Below, piece by piece: positions 1 through 16,800 of a stretch of 64,000 nucleotides of DNA. Position numbers and translations under genes: made by a program. This stretch comes from Camelus ferus (taxonomy: Eukaryota), in the NCBI RefSeq assembly GCF_009834535.1, contig NC_045696.1:42844001-42908000 (forward strand). The letters are read 5' to 3'. The stretch's first letter is position 1; every line of letters starts with the position of its first letter. Under the pieces are notes generated by a model. That model was not told the origin of the DNA, ran no database searches, and worked only from the letters and a program-made list of their open reading frames with translations.

Positions 1-180
1 TCCCACTGAGTACTTCTTTTTAGTGTAGACTTGCCTGCAACAGATTCTCTCAAGTTGTCTTAAAATTTCTTTATTCAACCTTTATTTTTGAAGACTGTCT
101 TGTCTGTGTATAGAATTACAGGCTTGGTTAATTTTTTTTCTCTTCACTTCAAAGATTCATTCCATTGCTATCTTTTCTTT
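1..180 (-). mobile_element. Old LINE-1 fragment (L1M/L1ME type, ORF1 3' region), antisense
   Basis: Resembles recalled L1M antisense text (caacagattctctc...tttattcaacctttatttttgaaga...tatagaatt...aaagattcattccattg); heavily diverged. Confidence 0.6.
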
Positions 181-1814
181 CAAGAATTCTGCAGTCTGAA
201 TTTTTCCTTTTACGTTCATGAACCTTGTTAGAGTTCTCACAGGACCATAGAGAGTCAATTGTTATTAATACCTCTGCTTTCTTCATTTCTTTAACAAAAT
301 TTTAATTTCTCACTTCATTCTGTGACTTAATATTCTTAAGAAGCATTTACTACAGAAGGTGGCTGAGGAAATTCTAATATTTCTCATTTTATGTTTCCAA
401 AAAATAATTAACCAAGTAGGTTTTCTCATGTTTGACCTCAAGCCAATTATTGACTTCTCCATCCCTCACACATCCATTATACAGAGGTAAGGGTGATCTT
501 AATCAAGGATGTGTGTATTTTCTTGTTTCCTGGTGCTCACTCTGTTAGCCTTTACTTCTGTGTCTACATAACTGCTCAGTTTCACTTGGGGTGTGTGCCC
601 TCAGGGTCATTAGTAGAGATAAGATTGTATGTAGTTAGTTCCTTTATTAACAAACCAAGGAATAACCTTTCCTTACCTTCATTTTACTTAACTCCAAGAG
701 AGGCATGCAAACTTCAGTTTTCTGCTAGGAATATAGCAAAAGCTCCTGGCCTCCAGTTAAGAACTTATTTTATGAATGAAGTGAAGTCTGTACCATGTTT
801 TAGAATGGTCTTTACTAACTCTTCTTCTAATTTGCATGTCTTAGAATTATTTACACTAGGATTGACATATGGGTAGTGTCCTTTAGGACTAATGACAGAT
901 GAAGTAGGTATTTTTTCTCTTACCTACTTTAATATTGGGCTACCACCAAGACTTTGGTAGGAACTCCATTAATTTTCTTACAAAAATGTAATCTCTTTCC
1001 CATTATTAACATGAGGGTGAGAAGTTCTCTTTTCTTTCTATGTACTCTTTTTCTGAGTTTTTTTTTTTTTTTCTTTTTTTTCTTTTTTAACCAGCCATGG
1101 TCCCAATGTGAGATCATAAATGGATCTGGCAGTACGGTATTCATGCTCTCTGGTCCTCTCAGGGGCAGCATAAGAAAAGGCATACAAGTTGGTAGAGTCC
1201 TTGAATAATCACAGTTGTATCTACCATACTCTGGGTTGGTGGCACACTGGAGGAGGCTTTAATTTGATTATCATAAAATTGACTTAGCTGCTCTCCTTAC
1301 CATTTCCAGTGTTTCAGTGCTGCATTTTGTATTACTGTGGGAAAGGGAAGGGACAATTTCTCCTGTTGCATTTATCTCAGACTGGTTTTTACTGAACCTA
1401 AGAAGATACTGCATTCAGATTATTAATAGATAGAATGCCAAAGACTTCACGTAACAGTGGGTCAGCACTCAAAACTAAAATTCTCAGTTGAGTAATATCA
1501 AAGTTGAGCAAGATTTTCTCCAAGTCCTCTAAAAAAGCATTGGGATGACCATGTGAGCCAGATCTTATTACAAGTTCATGCCAAAAGCTCTTTTATCAAA
1601 GACTCCTTCCTCCTTGCTTACTGGTTTCACTATTTCCAAAGCTGCTATGAGTAACTGTTTTTTCCTAGTTTCTCTCGGCTTTCCTCACTATTATATATTT
1701 TAGTTATTGATTGGTTTCCTGTTGGATGGTACAAAATATTTGATACATCAAAACATGGATAGGTCAGCAACCATTTGCACATCAAAATTTAATAAGTTCC
1801 GAGAGAGAAAAAGA

Positions 1815-2075
1815 AAGATGGGTGGGTGGAAAGGGACGTGGTTTCATAGATGGATGGATTGAAGGGTGAGTGGCTGGATGAATGGATAAGTAGGTAAAAA
1901 GACTGATAGATGGGTGGATGGATGGATGGATGGATGGATAGATAGGTAGGTGGGTGGATAGGGACATGGGTTCATAGATGGATGGATTGAAGGGTGGGTG
2001 GTTGGACGAATGGATAGGTAGGTAAAAAGATAGATGGGTGGGTGAGGAGGTAGAGAGAGAGAAAGAAAGAAAAAA
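1815..2075. repeat. Degenerate (GGAT/GGGT)n purine-rich simple repeat containing an internal duplication with 128-bp period
   Basis: GGATGGAT runs; the 82-bp segment 1821-1902 recurs at 1949-2030. Confidence 0.9.
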
Positions 2076-2814
2076 ATTAGTTCCTTCTTTATCATAGTTT
2101 GTTGGGACAAAGTGTTTCTATTTTATTTTATTATTTTATTCAGTCAAGGATCTTTATGTTGATTCCACTCCAATCAAACCAATCTGCTTGTTACAGGACC
2201 TCTGATTCAGTGTCAGTGCAGCCTAAGTATGTAGTTAATGGAAAGACTCACAAGACACATTATGTTCCTACCATTGGTTTAATATGTTTTTTGCATTTGA
2301 TTTCCTTTTGATTTTTTTCAGAAGACTTTATTTTTTAGAGCAGTTTTAGGTTCACAGCAAAATTGAGCAAAGGATAGCTTTCTGTATATCCCTTTCTCCA
2401 CACATAAACTGCTTCCTCCATTATCAGCCCCGTTCACCAGAGTGGTACATGAGTTTCAATTGATGAACTGACATTGACACATTGTTATTACTGAGGGTTC
2501 ACAGTTTATATTTGAGTACAGTCTTAATGTTGTACACTCCATGGCTTTGGAATAATGTGTAATATGTATCTCCATTACCGTGTTATACGGAATAGTTTCA
2601 CTGAAAGCCCTTTGTTTCACCTGTTACTGCCCCCTCCCTTCCCTAACCCTTGGCAACCTGTGATATTTTTACCTTTTCCATAGTTTTGTGTTTTCCAGAA
2701 AGTCAAATAGTTGGAATCGTTTTGGCATGTAGCCTTTTCATATTGGCTTCTTTCATTTATTGATACACATTTACGTTTCCTCTATGTCTTTTTATAACTT
2801 GATTGTTTCTACCT

Positions 2815-2932
2815 TTCTTGCTTTCTTCCTTCCTTCCTTCTCTCTTCTCTTTCTTTCCTTTCCTTCTTTCCTCCTTTCCTTCCTTTCCGTTCCTTCCTTT
2901 CCGTTCCTTCCTTTCCGTTCCTTCCTTTCCTT
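2815..2932. repeat. Polypyrimidine (CTTT/TTCC)n microsatellite ending in three copies of the 14-mer TTTCCGTTCCTTCC
   Basis: Read directly; 14-mer x3 at 2884-2925. Confidence 0.95.
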
Positions 2933-3158
2933 TATAAAAATACCAAAAGCATGACACCACAGTTATGCCGCGGCATGGGCTGATTAGTCACTAATCCATC
3001 GAGATGTCTTATTTAAGAGGAAAGTGTGGGCGATTTTAGGTGAGATGGTCCTGAAGTAAGAACCAGATGCCTGATAAAGTTCCGGTTTAGAAACCCCCAC
3101 AATGGATGGGCCCGGAGCGAGAAGAGGGACCCCTGCTGTGCGGGTTGATAGTTTCACG
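2933..3158 (-). other. NUMT: nuclear copy of the mitochondrial control region (D-loop central conserved domain, about boxes F to B), camelid/artiodactyl-like
   Basis: Reverse complement reads CGTGAAACTATCAACCCGC..CCCTCTTCTCGCTCCGGGCCCAT..GGCATCTGGTTCTTACTTCAGGACCATCTCACCTAAAATCGCCCAC..CTTAAATAAGACATCTCGATGG..GACTAATCAGCCCATGCCGCGGCATAACTGTGGTGTCATGC.TTTGGTATTTTTATA, the collinear conserved blocks of the mammalian mtDNA control region; 9 CpGs in 226 bp. Confidence 0.95.
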
Positions 3159-3593
3159 TCTTCCTTCCTTCCTTCCTTCCTTTCCTTCCTTTCCTTCCTT
3201 TCCTTCCTTTCCTTCCTTCCTTCCTTCCTCCTTCCTTCCTTCCTTCCTTCCTTCCTTCCTTCCTTCCTTCCCTTCCTTCCTTCCTCGTCTTCCTTCCTCG
3301 TCTTCCTTCCTCGTCCTTCCTTCCTTCCTTCCTTCCTCGTCTTCCTTCCTTCCTTCCTCGTCTTCCTTCCCCGTCTTCCTTCCCCGTCTTCCTTCCTCGT
3401 CTTCCTTCCTTCCTTCCTTCCTCGTCTTCCTTCCTTCCTTCCTCGTCTTCCTTCCTTCCTTCCTCGTCTTCCTTCCTTCCTTCCTCGTCTTCCTTCCTCG
3501 TCTTCCTTCCTCGTCTTCCTTCCTTCCTTCCTCGTCTTCCTCGTCTTCCTCGTCTTCCTCGTCTTCCTCGTCTTCCTCGTCTTTCTCATCTTC
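3159..3593. repeat. (TTCC)n microsatellite grading into CTCGTCTTC(CTTC)n and ending in a 9-mer (CTCGTCTTC) array
   Basis: Read directly; 5 perfect plus 2 degenerate 9-mers at 3531-3593. Confidence 0.95.
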
Positions 3594-6500
3594 CCATTGA
3601 ATAATATTCCATTGGATGTACCACAGCCATTCAGTTTCTGTTCACTTGCTCACTGACGTCTTGGTTGCTTCCCAATTGTGGCAATGATAAATAAAGCTGC
3701 TGCTATAAATATCCATGTGAGAGTTTTTCTGTAGGTAAAAATTTTCAACTCCTTTGGGTAAATAGTAAGGTGTGAAATCGATGTATCAAATGGTAATTGT
3801 ATGTTTAGTTGCCAAACTGTCTTCCAAAGTGGCTATACCATTCTGTATTCCCATCAGTAATAAATGAGAGGTCATGTTGTTCTATATCCTCACCAGGATT
3901 TGATGTCAGTGTTTTGGGTTTTGGCCATTCTAAGAGGTGTGCAGTGGTACTTCATTGTGGGTTTAACTTCCCTGAAGACACACGATGTGGGATGTCTTTT
4001 TCTGTGTTTATTTTTGACATCTGCGTATCTTGTCTGAGGTTTCTGTTCAGCTCTTTTGCCCATTTTTAAATTGGGTTGTTTCCTTTCTTATTGTTTAAGA
4101 GTTTCTTGTATATTTTGGGTAATAGTCTTTTATCAGATAGGACTTTTTACAAATATTTTCTTTTTGTGGCTTGTCTTTTAATCCTCTTGACAGTGTCTTT
4201 TGCAGAGCACAAGACTTTCATCTGAAGAAAGCCTGTTCTCTCATGGATCGTGCCACGTATCTAGAAAGTCATTTCTATGCCTAAGGTCCTCCAGATTTTA
4301 TTCTGTGTGAGTTTCTTCTAGGAGTTTTATAGTTTTGCATTTACAGTTAGGTCTTTGACCCATTTTGAGGTACTCTCTGTGATTTCCTTTGATTTTTGAA
4401 TTTGACTTGCTAGGCTGTAAGAGATGATGTTTAAGCGAGAGTGAGTAACATCAGGCCTATGAAGCTAATACCTCCTATTCCACACTTACTTTTAAAGTCT
4501 GCTCTAAGCGCCTGAATTTTATCCTGCCTTTGACTCTGCACTTTATATATTGGGGGAGGGGTCTCAGGCCATAGGGTACTTGGGACATCATGGCATACAG
4601 TTAACATTTCTCATTTATCTTAAGCCACGCCATTTCAGAGTTGCAAGAAAGTTGCATATTCCCACTTGCCAGGGAACAATTCAGATCTTGTGTTGGATCT
4701 TTCTCTGAGAACCTCATGTAGTTCTTGAAGCTCTTTTAAAAAGAGTAATGCTGATATTACTTGTCTTCAAATTTAGAGGCTTCAGGTTCTGCAGGTGTCT
4801 CATCTCAGCTATGTATTTTTCTAATAGACTTTAAAATAGGTATTTTCTTCACTTTTCCAGAAATATATTTTGTAATAACTTGTCTAGGTCCTTCAAGAAT
4901 GAATGCAGTTACTTAAAAAATTTCAAACCCAAACTTTGTTCAGTGTAACCAATATGACAGCTAATAAATACTTATTTTGAAAAATCCCATTTTAAACTAC
5001 TTACTTGGCTAAAACAAGTGTTTCTGTCCTCCCCCCACCACTGCCAAACCACGTAAATAAATAGTGTACTAGTGGAGGTGCGATTTGGCATCAAGTGTTT
5101 TACTTCCTCCTGCCAGCCTTGCATTCACTTGTCAACATTCAGTCAGTCCCCCAGGAGACGCTGTGCCCAGCTCCCTGTGACTGGGGAGGGTAACCGTAGG
5201 GGAGACAGGGGAAGAACGTGCATAGGAGGGAACAGAAGACATCTGCCCTGGGGACTGGTGTGGTCAACTTAAAAAGTATTTGTAGTACATGTGGAAATAA
5301 CCCTGGAACGTGTTCTGAATCAAAACACTTCTCATTAAAATTCCAGTGTTCTTTGGTAAAAAAGAAGAAAACAGTCATAGTTTATATTTTCACCTGGTGA
5401 AATCATAGCAAACATTTTAAATAGAGTTTAATATTTACTTCTCAAAATAATGCTCTCTTTAGGTCTAATTTTGTAGGTGTTTGTAAACATAACTTAGGAA
5501 CTTAAGTTCAAGGCTTAAAGAGCCAGAGGAGATGTGAAGGTGTTACTGATCTCAAATCTAACTGATCGCTAAGCTCATACTCTTTTTACTATTACCTGTT
5601 ACATAGGAAAAAGCCAAGTCACTCAAGACAAAAACTGTCTTTTAATCTACGTTTATACGGAAGTAAAAACATACCATTCAGTCTGTTACTAATGGCAATA
5701 TGAGCTAGAAAGGATTTATTGCAAATGAGAGTGTCTATTCAATGTACATATGAAGGCATTTAAAATCATGGCCAAATCACCAGGGTTACATTCAAACAAG
5801 TATATTAGACTTAGACAGGAAGTCTTAATTTTCAAATAGTAAAGTCAAACATACCAAGTCATTTTACCAAAAATCTTAGCAAATATGTGTGATTACTCAA
5901 TTAGCATACATCATAGATAACGTTAATCATAAGTGTACTATTTTTGAACAATAAGTTAAATATAAAAGCTACAAATCACTAAAAATGTGCTTTAAGGATA
6001 GAATATCTTTGAGACATATTTATACCAGAATATAATCGTTAGCTCAGTGGTTGGCTGAAGATTTACCTCTAGATTTTGAACTAAATTACAAGAATCACAA
6101 AAATAGAATTTGTCTCTCAATCCCAAAATATTTCAAAGAACTTTACTAAATAAAACTCTCCAACTAGGATATAGAATCCATAAGGGCAGAATTAAAACTT
6201 GGTGACTTTCTTTTCTTTCCCATAGCATATCCAAATTTATTTAATTTTTAAATAAATGATTTTTGAATTTAACTTACGCTATTTTGGGTCTTTTTATTCC
6301 AATATACCTAGTTGACTAATTTGATAAATCCATTCATACAAAAGTCAATTCTAATGGTTTTCAGTAGGATTGAAATCTTGATTATAATAACCATTGATGA
6401 TATAATAACCTTTGATAATTCACCTCAAATACTGCTTCAACAGATACTATTTGCAAGGAAAACGTTTTGCACAATGCAAATTCTTCTTGCTCTTTAATAA

Positions 6501-9405
6501 AAGTTTCAAGGTTTTAGGAAAAGTAAGTTAGATAACCCTCTCTGGAGATGAGAGCATATGTAATTTGTCTCATTAAGGAAACCAATGCAAAAAAATCAAA
6601 TGGCTAAACTGTAGCAAGATATGACTTTGGAATGAGATCATTATTTTAAATATTCATTTATTTTACTTATTTCTGCTCTGTTTTACAAAAAAAAAAAAAA
6701 AAAAAAGAAAGAAAATGTGACATAGAAGAATGGGTCTGGATATTCCAAATGGACAAACGTTTACGGCTATTTTGCCCTTTGGCTGTCAAATGGCTTCATG
6801 ATAGACTTTGCTTTTCAACCAATTTTGCTATATGTAGACACAGTCTATGAATCTCCTTTAGGAATAGAATCTGCATGGATTTTAAATTGAAGGCTATTGC
6901 TTTTGAGAAGAGAAAAACATTTTAAACAGTAAATAAGTAATACAAAGCATCACAGAGAGAAATCACCTCTGATGTGGTTTCTATATGTAAGATGTTGATC
7001 TTTATGCTGAAGCAGAAACAAAAACCATGCACCAGGCTATTTCTAAGAAGTCATAAAACTTGGGGAAAAAAACTGATTTATTTATTCTTTTGACTTCTTG
7101 ATTGGCAAGTTGGTTTTCTGTTCTTCTTTTTAAAGTTGTAAAAGGCAAACAATAGAAAGTAATCCAGGTATTAAAATAGGTATTATTTTAAATGAACTAG
7201 AATTATATTTAAAAGACTTACCTTCATTAGAAATGTTCAAAACACATTTGTGTTTCTGTAAATGCGGTGAATACTTGTGTAACCTGATAGACGATATGTA
7301 CTTTGTGTTTTAATGACTATAATTTGAATGGAGTCTCAGAAATATGATTCTCTTTGAAAGAACAGCAGAGAAGGAAAGGAAATACTCCAATAAATGGCAC
7401 TCCACCATTGGCAACTTGCATCCAATTGCATAGGCTTTTGGAAGCTTACTTCCATTTGTTTATTACATAAGCTTGTTAAAGCAAATGAAAAAAAAATGCT
7501 TCATTGGCCTAACTTAAATTGTGTGTAAATTTTCAATAGCACCAGTTGCTGCTACAGAAAGGAGACCATACCGGAAAGTTGACCCATGTGAAAATAAAAT
7601 ATTCATGTCTATGTTCATGGAAATATACAAGCCACCCAAGGCTAAAATAGCAGTTACATAACTTTCCCCCTTAATTCTCCTTATGAATGGATTTAGACTT
7701 TGAATTACCTTTATAAAGCATCTCAAATTCATTGCTTTATTTAACTCATTTGCACAGATTTTATAAACCTGTTACTGAAGAAATAGAGAAGCCAATAAAA
7801 ACAGAAATGTTATTGAGTATAAATGTCAAATTCTTAGAGGCTTCTAAATGTATTTTGCTGTTGAATCCAAGCTGTCTTCTGTTTTCAGATTGTACTCCTT
7901 CATTATATTATTGGCTGCTTATTACTATTCCTCATGTGGCCATATTGAATTTTGCTTCATTTAGGGTGGAATTTGTTTTTTATATTCCTGTTCTCACATA
8001 TCAGTAATAACATACCTTGTAGAAAGTTCCCAATCAAGGTATATTATGGAGAGGTAGATTTCAACATAAATGAACATATTAAATTTTATTTTAGCTTTCA
8101 GTTTGAAAACAAAAACTGTTCCTTATAACATAGATCCAGTGAAAAGGGGTGACAAATTATATGATGATAATTTAATATGAAGTATAAGTCAACAGCAAAT
8201 CAAAACAACGCTAGACATTTTAAAGGATAGTAAGAGAAATTTAGCAGGGCAGTGTTTCTGGCACATAGAAAATACAGTGTCAATGTGCTCTTAGATGTAT
8301 CAAGACATCTCTAATCTATATTGATCGTTGATGAATGATGAAGTCTTGATGTTCCCAGGCAGTAACTTACCTATTTCCGTCTCAATATATGTTTGACTCT
8401 TCATTTTCCTTTGCACAAGGAACTTTCAGTGTATCCACTTGAGTGACAGCCACTTGAGTAATTTCTTATGGAGTCAAATAACTGGAAGTTGATTGTCTAT
8501 CTCCATTTATTTCCATTTGGTAACAAGATCCATAATTTACACCTGTTGAGCAAACCCTGTAACATGTGCCCATTTTGTACTTTGTATCATCAACATTATA
8601 GCAATAATGTTTTGTACATTTTCTGCTGGATCTCTTGGGCTGCCTCAGTTAAAAAACAAAAAGGCCGTTATCAGCAGAGCAATATTGGTGCATTAGCAAT
8701 GATGAAGTGAAGACTTGCTGAAAGATAGCTTATATGAGCATAGCTTGCAGAACAGCTCCTCAGAGTGGTATTATAAAAGATGAAAACTTGGTCAGTTTCT
8801 CCTAGAAATGTTTTAATACTAAAAAAATTGAAATGTGTCTGCTATTTCTTGAAAAGTAGTCACAGGTACAGGGCATGAAAGAACATAATTCAAGAACCTA
8901 AACATTAGTTATGTTTCCCTAACCCCAACTTCATGACTTGATAGTAATCTAGTTTTAAATTTCAAGGAAAATAAGTATTTTATGAAATTTGAATCTTTCA
9001 AAGAGGTAAATTCATATTAATACTATGATTCAGTAGATGAAAAATTGCACAAATGAGGGAGAGCTTTATAAACTGCCAAATACCATAAAATCAGTGATTT
9101 ATAATTTACAAAGATTTTCTGCCTTATCATTGCTTTATTTAAAGTAATATTACTCAGCTTTATTCCCTGTACAGTGAGGAATTTTCTGTACCTTCTCCTT
9201 ATAGTATATTTGTCACCTGTCTTTGCACTCAAACTATTAGACTGGGCATAATTTTTGACTTTCCTCTGCTTCCTTAATCCTCAAATTAACTCAGCAAATA
9301 AACATTTTATTTTCCCTTTAAATTATTTCTTAAATTTTCTCTCCTCTTTATCTTCCATGACTTAACAAATCCTTTTCAACATATAGCTACAGTATTTTAG
9401 TTAAC

Positions 9406-13654: not shown

Positions 13655-16600
13655 TTTTTTCTAGTTTTATTGAGATGTAACATTGTTAGTATACAATGTG
13701 ATGATCTGATATATGTACATATTGCAAAATGGCTGTCACAGTAAGAAGAGTTAACATATCCATCACCTTATACAGTTACCAGTTTTATGTGTGTGAGAAC
13801 TTTTAAGATTTGCTACTCTTAGCATCTTTGAAGTATGACACAGTATTGTTAACTATGGCCACCATGCTGTGCATTACATTTCCCAGAACTTACATATCTT
13901 ATAACGGGAAATTTGTACCCTTTGACCAGCCACCTTCATGTATTTCCCCCACCTCCCAGCCCCTTGTAACCACCAATCTACTCTCTTTCTGTGAGTTCAG
14001 TTCCTTTTTTGTTTTTGTTTTTTTTCAGATTCCACATATAAGTGATACTATATTGTATTTGTCTTTCTCTGTTGACTAGTTTCACATAGCATAATGTACT
14101 CAAGGTTCATACATATTGGCACAAATGACAGGGTTTTTCTTTCTCATGGCTGAATAACATTTCATTATATAATCTAATTTTCTTTATCCATTCATTGATG
14201 GACACAAGTTGTTTTCATGTCTTGGCTGTTGTAAACAATTAGTGAACATGGGGGGTGGGAAGGTATCTCTTTGAGACTGTGCTTTTTGACAGTAGCCACT
14301 CTAACAGGTGTAAGGTTATAGCTCATTATGGTTCGTATTACCATTTCCCTGATAATTAGTCAGGTTGAGCACCTTTCATTTGCATGTTGAAAAGTTGAAT
14401 ATCTTTGAAAATGACTATTCAGGTCCTTTGTCCATTTTTAAATTGAATTATTAGGTGTTTTACACTCAAGTTATGTAAGTTTGAGTACTTTGAGTGTTGA
14501 CCCAGACAAAGAGATTGCAAATATTTTCTCTGATTCCATACATTGCCTTCTCATTTTGTTCATCTTTTTTTTTTACCGAAACTTCTTAGTTCGATGTAGT
14601 CACACTTGCTCTTGTTGCTTGTGCTTTTGGTGTCATGCATGAAAAATCATTGCTAAGGCAAATGTCAGAGTTGTTCCCTATGTGTAAGTTTAGCTTCCCC
14701 TGCCCCTCCCCCCTTTTTTCTGGTTATTATTTACTAGAAATAATTGTTTCTACCCCTTCATGTGCAACCTATGTGTGTACTTAAAGGTAAAGTGAGTTTT
14801 TTGTAGGCAGTATATTGGATCTTGTTTTTTATCCATTCATCTATTCTGTGTCTTTTTACTGGACAATTTAGTCCACTTTAAAGTATTTATAGATAAGGAT
14901 TTACTATTGAAATTTTATTTTCCTGACTGTTCTGTAGATTGTTTCTTGCTTCTTTTCCTACTTTGTCTTTTTTGTGATAACTTTTTGACGTACAGTTTGA
15001 CTCCTTTACCATAATATTTTATTTATCTACTATAGGTTTTTTCTTTGGGGTTACCATGAGCATTGCATAAAATGTCTTAGAGTTAAAATATCCTTTTTTA
15101 AGTTGATAAAAACCTGACATTGATAGCATATAGGAATTTATACTTTTCCCTCTCCTCAGATTTTAGGTTATTGATGTTACAAGCTACACCTTTTGTATTG
15201 TGCATCCCAAACCAAGTTATTAGACTTGTTTTTAATACACTCTTATTTTTTAAACCATAGTTGTGATTTACATACCACCATTACAATATTAGAGAATCTG
15301 ATTTAGAGTATTTATCTTTACTAATGAGTATATTTATTAGTTTCCTTTGGTGTCGTGTTTACCTGATTCTGCGTGATCCTTGTAGGCTTGCACTGGCATC
15401 TGTGCATTTAAGTAAGCAGTCTTCTCTTCCAGACTTGACAGGTTTGTTTCTGCAGGAAGAGACCATCACCAGTCAGACCAGCTTAGGGTACTGGATGGCT
15501 CGGCTGGTAGCACCTACAGGCAGGCAAGGCGTGTGGCTGGGGTTTCTGGGTGGGCAACACCACTACCTGTGTTTGAACTGGGAGAGGGTACTGCTGATTG
15601 GGTTCTACAGCTGGATGAGCTTACTAGCAGAGCTCTGAGTTTGAGTTCAAGTGAGGCCACAGGATGGGCTCCCAGTTGGGTGGGGCTGCTAGCTGTCCTC
15701 TGTGATCGGTGGGGTGACTAGCTGGGCTCTGCTCTCACCCCTGATGGGGCAGAGTTCCAGACTGTGTTTCCTAGTAAAATGGTGCTACTGGCTGGACTCT
15801 GTGACTGGACAGGGCTACAGGCTGGGCTCTGTGATCACTCCTGGATGGGCGGAGCCTCCAGCTGTGCTCTCCAACTGGCTGTGCTACTGACTGGACTCCT
15901 TGTTCAAGCAGGGCTTTGTCCTTGGTCAGAGCCTCAGGTTGTGCCCTGCAATCTGGTGGAGCCACAAGCTGTGCCCTAAGTTGGGCAGGGATGGAAGCTG
16001 GGTTTCCCAATCCCTATGTTTGGGTGAGGTCACTGGCCTGACTCTCTTTTGGGTGGGGTCTCCAACTTCATCCTGCTTGGATGGGGCTAAAGACTGTGCC
16101 CAGTGGTGGGCAGGGTCACTGGCTGGGCTGCTGTCTGGGCAGGCCTCGCTGTGTTCAGTAATCAAGCAGGGCCTTAGGCTGGGCTCAGAGGCTGCCTAGG
16201 CTCACTGTTCAGACTTCCTGGTTCTATGAGGTTGGAGGCTATGCTCAGTGGTTGGGTTGACTCACTGCCTGACTGTCAGCTAGTCTCTCTGGCCAGATGG
16301 GGCAACTGGATCAGTTCTGCAGATACCCAGAGCTGCTGGCTGGAATCCTAATTGGGCGCTGTAAGCAAGAATGCAGTCCACCAAGATCTGAGCACTAGTT
16401 GATATAAGGCCCTCCCTTCTTCTCGGTGTCTGATTCCCAGCGGTTGAGCCCTGCAGATTGCCCCAGAGAGACCCCGTGAGAAAAGACCCCAGTGGGCATC
16501 CTAGAAAGCGTCCCACAACACTGAGGGAGCCGGATGTCCATCTTGAGCTCTTTTTCACCTAGAGAAAACCCTCTTGTTCCAGTGCTGTGCTGGCCTGGGA

Positions 16601-16800
16601 GATGGGTGATGTGGTCAAAATGAAATTGCTCCCCTTTCCCATTTAATGCTGACCTTCTCTATCCAGGGGGCGCTTCGGCCTGACTCTGTTTCTGGGATTG
16701 TCACAACGGTCGTGTCTATGGATAGTTGCTAGTTGGTCTGTTGATGAGGAAGACCAAAGTGGGGGATAACATCTAAGCCGTCATTGTGATGAACGCCTCC
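13655..16800 (-). mobile_element. L1MA8/9-like LINE-1 with both termini and large internal deletions: 3' UTR/ORF2 end (13655-14690), ORF2 start and inter-ORF region (14700-15330), GC-rich 5' UTR (15330-16800)
   Basis: 3' end ttttattgagatgtaac..gtatacaatgtgatg; ORF2 start antisense gtgagttttttgtaggcag..ttggatcttg; 5' UTR with repeated ggctgggctc-like units ending in gccgtcattg (degenerate antisense CAAGATGGC). Older L1ME-like text flanks both sides (~13540-13650, 16800-16960). The pieces could be more than one insertion. Confidence 0.7.

Follow-up and report, generated by a model that had tools for sequence, protein, structure and literature searches.

A short control-region NUMT in a microsatellite within an L1 of Camelus ferus, probably older than its near-identity to mitochondrial DNA suggests

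The flanks of nuclear copies of mitochondrial DNA (NUMTs) are rich in retrotransposons, and in primates the D-loop is under-represented as a source of such copies, as stated in the portions of Tsuji et al. (2012; PMC3467031) that deal with these points. According to the passage on polishing in Rhie et al. (2021; PMC8081667), polishing of a genome assembly from which the mitochondrial contig is missing draws mitochondrial reads onto NuMTs, which are converted by them; the available portion of PMC8082918 makes no mention of NUMT conversion. For camelids, the divergences given in the relevant part of PMC5577142 are 1.1 My between C. bactrianus and C. ferus, 5.3 My between the dromedary and the two-humped camels, and 15.8 My between Camelini and Lamini. 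Judged by titles and the starts of abstracts, the literature on Camelus NUMTs does not describe the locus presented here, which is no proof that it is unpublished.

The window, that is, the whole 64-kb stretch of the C. ferus assembly that was analysed, contains an island of complex sequence (GC 0.48, C+T 0.43, nine CpGs) between two CT-rich repeats (Table 1). From the letters alone, an earlier note had read this island as a NUMT from the central part of the control region of camelid mtDNA, lying inside a CT-rich microsatellite that itself lies inside an L1. This reading holds in each of its parts, with the start of the island placed one base to the left, at 2932 in place of 2933. The five conserved blocks that the note listed are readable in order on the reverse complement, under what we take to be their usual names, and the expected single high-identity control-region match is returned by blastn against the mitochondrial contig of the same assembly (221 of 227 identities, no gaps, E 5e-108). 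With the entire mtDNA as query, this is the sole match in the 64-kb window. It is by homology to the mitochondrial genome of the species that the insert is recognised as a NUMT.

Table 1. Features of the locus. Differences between the insert and mtDNA are written as mitochondrial position, mitochondrial state > NUMT state, with the window position in brackets.
Feature	Window position	Strand	Comment
Old L1 fragment, ORF2 3′ end and tail (distal part)	2318..2811	minus	Related copy L015
Left arm of (TTCC)n-type pyrimidine-rich microsatellite	2812..2931	plus	Variant unit TTCCGTTCCTTCCT
NUMT	2932-3158	minus	227 nt from mtDNA 15696-15922, in the central conserved part of the control region
15914 C>T (2940)	2940		Ancestral state: T in 11/11 outgroups and three older camel NUMTs
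15906 A>T (2948)	2948		T unique to insert
NUMT core	2949..3129	minus	181 nt identical to modern mitochondrial contig; 7/9 CpGs
15724 A>G (3130)	3130		Ancestral state: G in three older camel NUMTs
15715 T>A (3139)	3139		A unique to insert
15704 C>T (3150)	3150		T unique to insert
15703 T>C (3151)	3151		Ancestral state: C in 9/11 outgroups and one older camel NUMT
Right arm, same microsatellite family, (CTTC)n	3159..3577	plus	Variant unit CGTCTTCCTTCCT
Old L1 fragment, ORF2 C-terminal part (proximal)	3578..4382	minus	Human ORF2p match and L015

The mitochondrial contig (C2043; 16,680 bp) is the last contig of the 2.087-Gb assembly. Its cytochrome b, read with the vertebrate mitochondrial code, is letter-identical to Camelus ferus records, therefore the contig is the mitochondrial genome of a wild Bactrian camel, although the sequence could be that of the public reference, taken from an animal other than the one sequenced. 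Rfam places two tRNAs, both above the gathering score, at mt 15300-15368 (plus strand) and 15368-15433 (minus strand), whereas ARAGORN found no tRNA in the mitochondrial locus. Since the tRNA matches end at mt 15433, the source segment lies within the control region, 263-489 nt into it when counted after tRNA-Pro, and the ACGTAC-type repeats begin beyond it, near mt 16090. The segment is 84-88% identical to each of 11 control regions recovered from metagenomes; because none of them is closer, these are regarded as other artiodactyls and not Camelus, and they served as outgroups only. Both the place of the segment, between tRNA-Pro and the repeat/CSB part, and its conservation are those of the central conserved domain. 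Searches of genome-contig and viral-contig collections for the D-loops of other Camelus gave no matches. Within the assembly, a 226-nt query has 17 matches, these being the insert itself, the mitochondrial contig, and 15 other nuclear places. The ACGTAC-type repeat at mt 16060-16364 (L016 6060-6364) also attracts many Rfam microRNA matches, all of which are below the gathering score and are artefacts of the repeat.

The NUMT splits a single array, with the same microsatellite family on both of its sides. Tandem Repeats Finder reports the left arm at 2812-2932 (period 4, CCTT) and 2826-2930 (period 14), with C+T of 0.97 and three CpGs, and the right arm at 3160-3532 (period 4) and 3157-3577 (periods 13 and 21), with C+T of 0.95 and 19 CpGs. 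Variant units containing CpG are present in both arms, TTCCG in the left (2826-2930) and CTCGT in the right (3157-3577); these units have multiplied within the arrays, so not every CpG close to the NUMT is an old single site.

The element around the array is identified as a LINE-1 by ORF2 protein homology and by high copy number. Its sense strand is the minus strand of the window, on which 60 amino acids (3650-3832) match residues 1152-1211 of human LINE-1 ORF2p (E 7.4e-9). Window 2327-2792 aligns with positions 2661-2165 of a related copy, L015 (67.8% over 503 nt), and window 3598-4382 aligns with its positions 2133-1309; an ORF of L015 matches residues 1129-1270 of human ORF2p (E 8.4e-32), and in another related copy, L014, the same strand leads upstream into an RVT_1 domain (E 1.4e-11). 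Pfam gave no relevant match for the short L1 pieces of the window itself; in the distal fragment, the minus-strand ORFs have what we take to be a resemblance to the C-terminus of L1 ORF2. The right flank has at least 5032 first-look candidates genome-wide, and the 40 that were scored consist of its own place and 39 others at 70-74% identity. About 250 nt past the 3′ end of the L1, window 1790-2060 is a G-rich tandem region of (GGAT/GGGT)n type, with GC skew of up to +0.87.

The two L1 flanks are separated by 31 nt in L015, compared with 805 nt in the window, and related L1 copies are pyrimidine-rich at the point that matches the array, therefore the (TTCC)n-type array is likely to have grown out of the L1 itself. 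At neither junction of the NUMT is any base shared with the continuing mtDNA, so there is no microhomology, and this fits blunt end joining as known from the origins of other NUMTs. A double-stranded control-region fragment of 227 nt would thus have been captured at a chromosome break inside the microsatellite of an old, 5′-truncated L1 that is antisense to the plus strand of the window, and both of its ends would have been joined without microhomology by end joining.

The insert differs from the mitochondrial contig by six substitutions and no indels (Table 1). For polarisation, their states were compared with those of 16 sequences, namely the 11 artiodactyl outgroups and five older NUMTs of the camel. 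The insert has the ancestral state at three of the six sites, and for at least three such coincidences among six random substitutions P is 0.008. These states indicate, on sequence comparison, that the insert predates three substitutions on the mitochondrial lineage of the C. ferus reference; it is likely to predate the common ancestor of the mitogenomes of living C. ferus. The source lineage would still have carried the three ancestral states, since replaced in the reference mitogenome, and the insert would then have gained three changes of its own. Table 1 of PMC7961272 lists two polymorphic control-region sites in 809 bp among 27 wild camels, and on the strength of that table the six differences are therefore not variation within the species.

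Two other ways of reading these differences were rejected. Nuclear decay after insertion was rejected as the source of all six, due to their non-uniform spread, the absence of any (0/6) at CpG (with a tenfold rate at CpG, P is 0.02), and the match of three to ancestral states. When the NUMT on C4 is used for polarisation, all six look derived on the NUMT branch; this was dropped, as the C4 NUMT is mosaic at those sites.

The differences proposed in the earlier note fare unevenly. It gave 'GGATTAGTGAC versus GGACTAATGAC' as a difference from the consensus, yet the host mtDNA has exactly GGATTAGTGAC. The other, GCTTTTGG versus GCATTTGG, is real (mt 15906 A>T), but its T is unique to the insert and is not ancestral. 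The suggestion that the differences record an ancestral haplotype is borne out at three of the six sites, none of which the note had named.

At the level of the assembly, the insert is nuclear on both sides, where a 122-Mb contig (C1) continues into microsatellite arms and L1 ORF2. For a 3.5-kb stretch, 0.74-0.83 of words are present in 20 runs (three organisms), a share that has no bearing on the insert in particular. Low-complexity sequence extends over 540 bp at the site and makes it hard to assemble, and the same assembly has a 7,072-bp stretch on C3 that is approximately 100% identical to mtDNA; both could suggest that the insert is a mitochondrial fragment that the assembler or a chimeric read placed within the microsatellite. 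However, the window has no N gaps, and the substitutions, three of them ancestral, distinguish the insert from the organelle DNA as represented by a contig that may come from a different animal. The near-invariance of wild-camel control regions in PMC7961272, as far as that source goes, likewise argues that the fragment is something other than the animal's own mtDNA. The earlier note had feared a mis-join of the animal's own mtDNA should identity be 100%, and neither the identity nor the ancestral states agree with this. A mis-join is extremely unlikely, and the insert is almost certainly a real NUMT.

What the assembled sequence says of the age of this NUMT is less straightforward. All six differences are within 29 nt of an end of the fragment (P 2.3e-4), and the identical run of 181 nt between them has P 3.5e-4 given six random sites, or 1.8e-3 if the adjacent pair is counted as one event. 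Constraint does not explain the identical core, because long-term variability is similar in both parts: a non-modern state is widespread at 13 of 58 sites in the ends and at 32 of 169 in the core. The insert keeps the non-modern state at three of these 13 end sites and at none of the 32 core sites (P 0.02). The assembled core may therefore differ from the true nuclear sequence, and the real divergence of the insert may be nearer to that of its end zones, where 6/58 sites differ within 29 nt, or 6/80 within 40 nt.

If the insert was assembled correctly, it is a NUMT of fairly recent origin from a haplotype slightly off the C. ferus reference line, in which chance or a hidden constraint on the core has produced the clustering at the ends. 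This is possible, although doubtful. It accords with the overall identity of 97.4% (221/227), with the retention of all nine CpGs, and with the equal division of the differences into three ancestral and three private, a balanced and natural-looking split between the branches. The blocks GGATTAGTGAC and CCGCGGC also fit, being derived and common to the insert and modern camel mtDNA; neither is found in any of the 11 other artiodactyl control regions or in those older camel NUMTs that extend over these columns. The clustering itself (P 2.3e-4 to 1.8e-3) and the restriction of ancestral states to the ends (3/13 versus 0/32) do not fit, and neither does the evidence from other NUMTs in the assembly.

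Short NUMTs drawn only from the best-scoring matches of the whole mtDNA were compared, the end zone being defined as within 40 nt of an end; the samples are small, with nine, four, and three loci. In the nine short NUMTs from beyond mt 7072, including the insert, 35/720 end sites (4.9%) differ from mtDNA, versus 4/1461 core sites (0.27%). In the four with at least 95% identity from below mt 7072, the values are 14/320 (4.4%) and 41/1183 (3.5%). The cores of these two groups thus differ 13-fold (P 5e-11), whereas their ends are equal (P 0.87). Three NUMTs at 90-91% identity from below mt 7072 have 23/240 differences in ends and 44/500 in cores, and one NUMT that straddles mt 7072, which was kept apart, has 7/80 and 3/235. 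A pattern of differences at the ends only is seen in four of the nine loci beyond mt 7072, namely the insert (6/6 differences) and three others, on C7 (8/9), at C4:11976983 (7/7), and on C15 (13/13). The remaining five are 98.8-100% identical to mtDNA, and four have clean ends.

In three coding NUMTs, 12 of the 19 differences in the end zones are at third codon positions (P 0.007), therefore these differences are evolutionary divergence and not random error. Their cores have no such differences.

Two larger control-region NUMTs that span the same mitochondrial segment as the insert are demonstrably mosaic, which again does not favour a simple recent origin. The C15 NUMT (C15:22595821-22596453; L004, L037, L049) has no differences over mt 15754-16068 and 17% divergence over mt 16354-16652. 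The C4 NUMT (C4:17501561-17515214; L003, L029, L034, L047, L069) is nearly full-length and has 14 perfect runs of 75-232 nt, where 0.016 would be expected, set with abrupt borders in a remainder that is about 23% diverged and in which differences occur at nearly every third base. In its mt 2587-4728 part, perfect runs extend to 528 and 485 nt. In seven other old NUMT loci examined, there is no perfect run of more than 28 nt.

Five short NUMTs have no more than one difference from the mitochondrial contig (C16:6115313-6115657, C2:34088054-34088344, C19:403400-403627, C34:14727997-14728217, and C25:4780836-4780918). They are 83-345 nt long with unique, non-repetitive flanks, and are either very recent insertions or copies that have been fully converted. 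The ends of those on C16, C2, C19, and C34 are clean (0/80 each).

The 7,072-bp copy on C3 (C3:44105426-44112498; L067, L068) corresponds to mt 1-7072 and has (TA)n flanks on both sides, inside the 3′ end of an L1. It crosses the origin of the linear mitochondrial record by 7 nt, therefore the record itself was not its source. Within 574 nt checked at its two ends there are three differences (mt 96 G>A, 7030 C>T, and one inserted A). The copy is a mega-NUMT of very recent origin, or else a NUMT that was fully converted in polishing. A role for it as a decoy that shields the NUMTs of mt 1-7072 is no more than a lead; the short NUMTs agree with such a role, but the C4 NUMT, which is mosaic in mt 2587-4728 too, does not.

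Single core differences are shared between independent NUMTs in two cases, mt 11181 A>G in C7:31705493-31705779 and C25:4780836-4780918, and mt 7030 C>T in C3:6851691-6852004 and C3:44112200-44112498. These sites may be derived in the reference mitogenome; alternatively, the sequenced animal's own mtDNA has these alleles, and they were copied into both loci.

A biological origin for the contrast between ends and cores would involve either mutation of the ends at capture, by error-prone fill-in of damaged or single-stranded ends during end joining, or renewal of old NUMTs in vivo by repair templated on fresh mtDNA fragments, in which a new core would come to lie between old ends. In the insert, no difference is more than 29 nt from an end, and the six include a tandem double change and both transversions. 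Non-synonymous changes are in excess in the end zones of the coding NUMTs (12/36, versus 1/27 in cores; P 0.004), and the perfect blocks in the C4 NUMT, at 75-232 nt, are similar in length to mammalian gene-conversion tracts. However, three of the six end differences of the insert are ancestral and so are not new errors (P 0.008), and the third-position enrichment in the ends of coding NUMTs (12/19) is unlike random repair errors. Likewise, four very young NUMTs have no changes in any of their eight end zones, there is no biological rationale for a split at mt coordinate 7072, and we know of no mechanism by which a nuclear copy that is 23% diverged would be converted on an mtDNA template. Such an origin is highly unlikely for the pattern seen here, and slightly less credible again is the more general proposition that old NUMTs are renewed in the living genome, by repair of breaks on fresh mtDNA, or mutated over some 30 nt in end joining. 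Were it true, the insert, at least three other short NUMTs, and the C4 and C15 mosaics would be biology and not artefact.

Natural divergence cannot yield the C15 and C4 mosaics, whereas the documented polishing artefact can. It is from these mosaics, together with that documentation, that the core of the insert is judged to be probably overwritten by modern mitochondrial sequence in assembly polishing, a judgement made from the assembled sequences. The consensus would have been polished with reads among which mtDNA reads were abundant, and these would have put modern mitochondrial sequence, with seven of the nine CpGs of the insert, in place of the true 181-nt core. The insert is then probably older than it looks, and the account as a whole, of a real NUMT that is older than apparent and has an overwritten core, is favoured on balance.

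There are points against overwriting that a recent insertion accommodates. Had a read-mapping polisher been at work, it should also have converted the differences that lie 17, 20, and 29 nt in from the ends, and by our estimate differences at 17-29 nt are not obviously safe from it. The four clean-ended short NUMTs, at 99.5-100% identity, mean that very recent NUMTs exist in this genome, and the insert could be another, with some other cause behind the differences at its ends. In addition, a perfect core is less surprising in the conserved central domain than in coding DNA.

All nine CpGs of the insert are also in mtDNA, so that 9/9 CpGs of the mitochondrial segment are retained, and the earlier note took retained CpGs to mean a recent transfer. 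This is not supported, as seven of the nine are in the 181-nt core that is identical to modern mtDNA. The core has possibly been overwritten by mitochondrial reads, and in that case its CpGs would say nothing about age. The end zones contain the other two, both retained.

The insert is an ordinary short NUMT without function. Of wider consequence is that in this assembly neither identity to mtDNA nor CpG retention can be used to date NUMTs, as the interiors of those from beyond mt 7072 are nearly all identical to the modern mitogenome irrespective of their ends. Camel NUMT catalogues and ages drawn from this assembly would be biased towards the young. For mitochondrial work, the insert is a minor nuisance; it would be co-amplified only if both primers were within mt 15696-15922, and at single-copy depth it would presumably add little to heteroplasmy calls. 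Should some Camelus species prove to lack it, its presence or absence would make a clean marker.

Compared with mammalian NUMTs that arose by end joining, the insert is alike in being short, non-coding mtDNA between nuclear flanks, with blunt junctions and no target-site duplication. Its retrotransposon-rich surroundings match the NUMT flanks described by Tsuji et al. (2012; PMC3467031), although the part of that study on flanking sequence stresses neighbouring A+T oligomers and the insert is in a GC-containing (TTCC)n array. Unlike in the primates reported there, the D-loop is not a rare source in the camel genome, given the 15 other nuclear matches. The camel NUMTs also resemble the over-polishing case of Rhie et al. 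(2021; PMC8081667), in that interiors are identical to the organelle while other parts are strongly diverged. In the example given in that source, however, a whole NuMT was converted by long reads, whereas conversion in the camel is suspected and patchy, and for the 227-nt insert it would need short reads.

Within the assembly, the closest relatives of the insert are the control-region NUMTs C34:14727997-14728217, C15:22595821-22596453, and C4:17501561-17515214, which derive from mitochondrial segments that overlap with its own. Like the insert, they are identical to modern mtDNA wherever the central domain is covered, yet they are independent insertions, with other mitochondrial end points and other nuclear flanks. 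Among these, the insert alone is in a microsatellite within an L1, and the 7-kb copy on C3 is in a (TA)n array within an L1.
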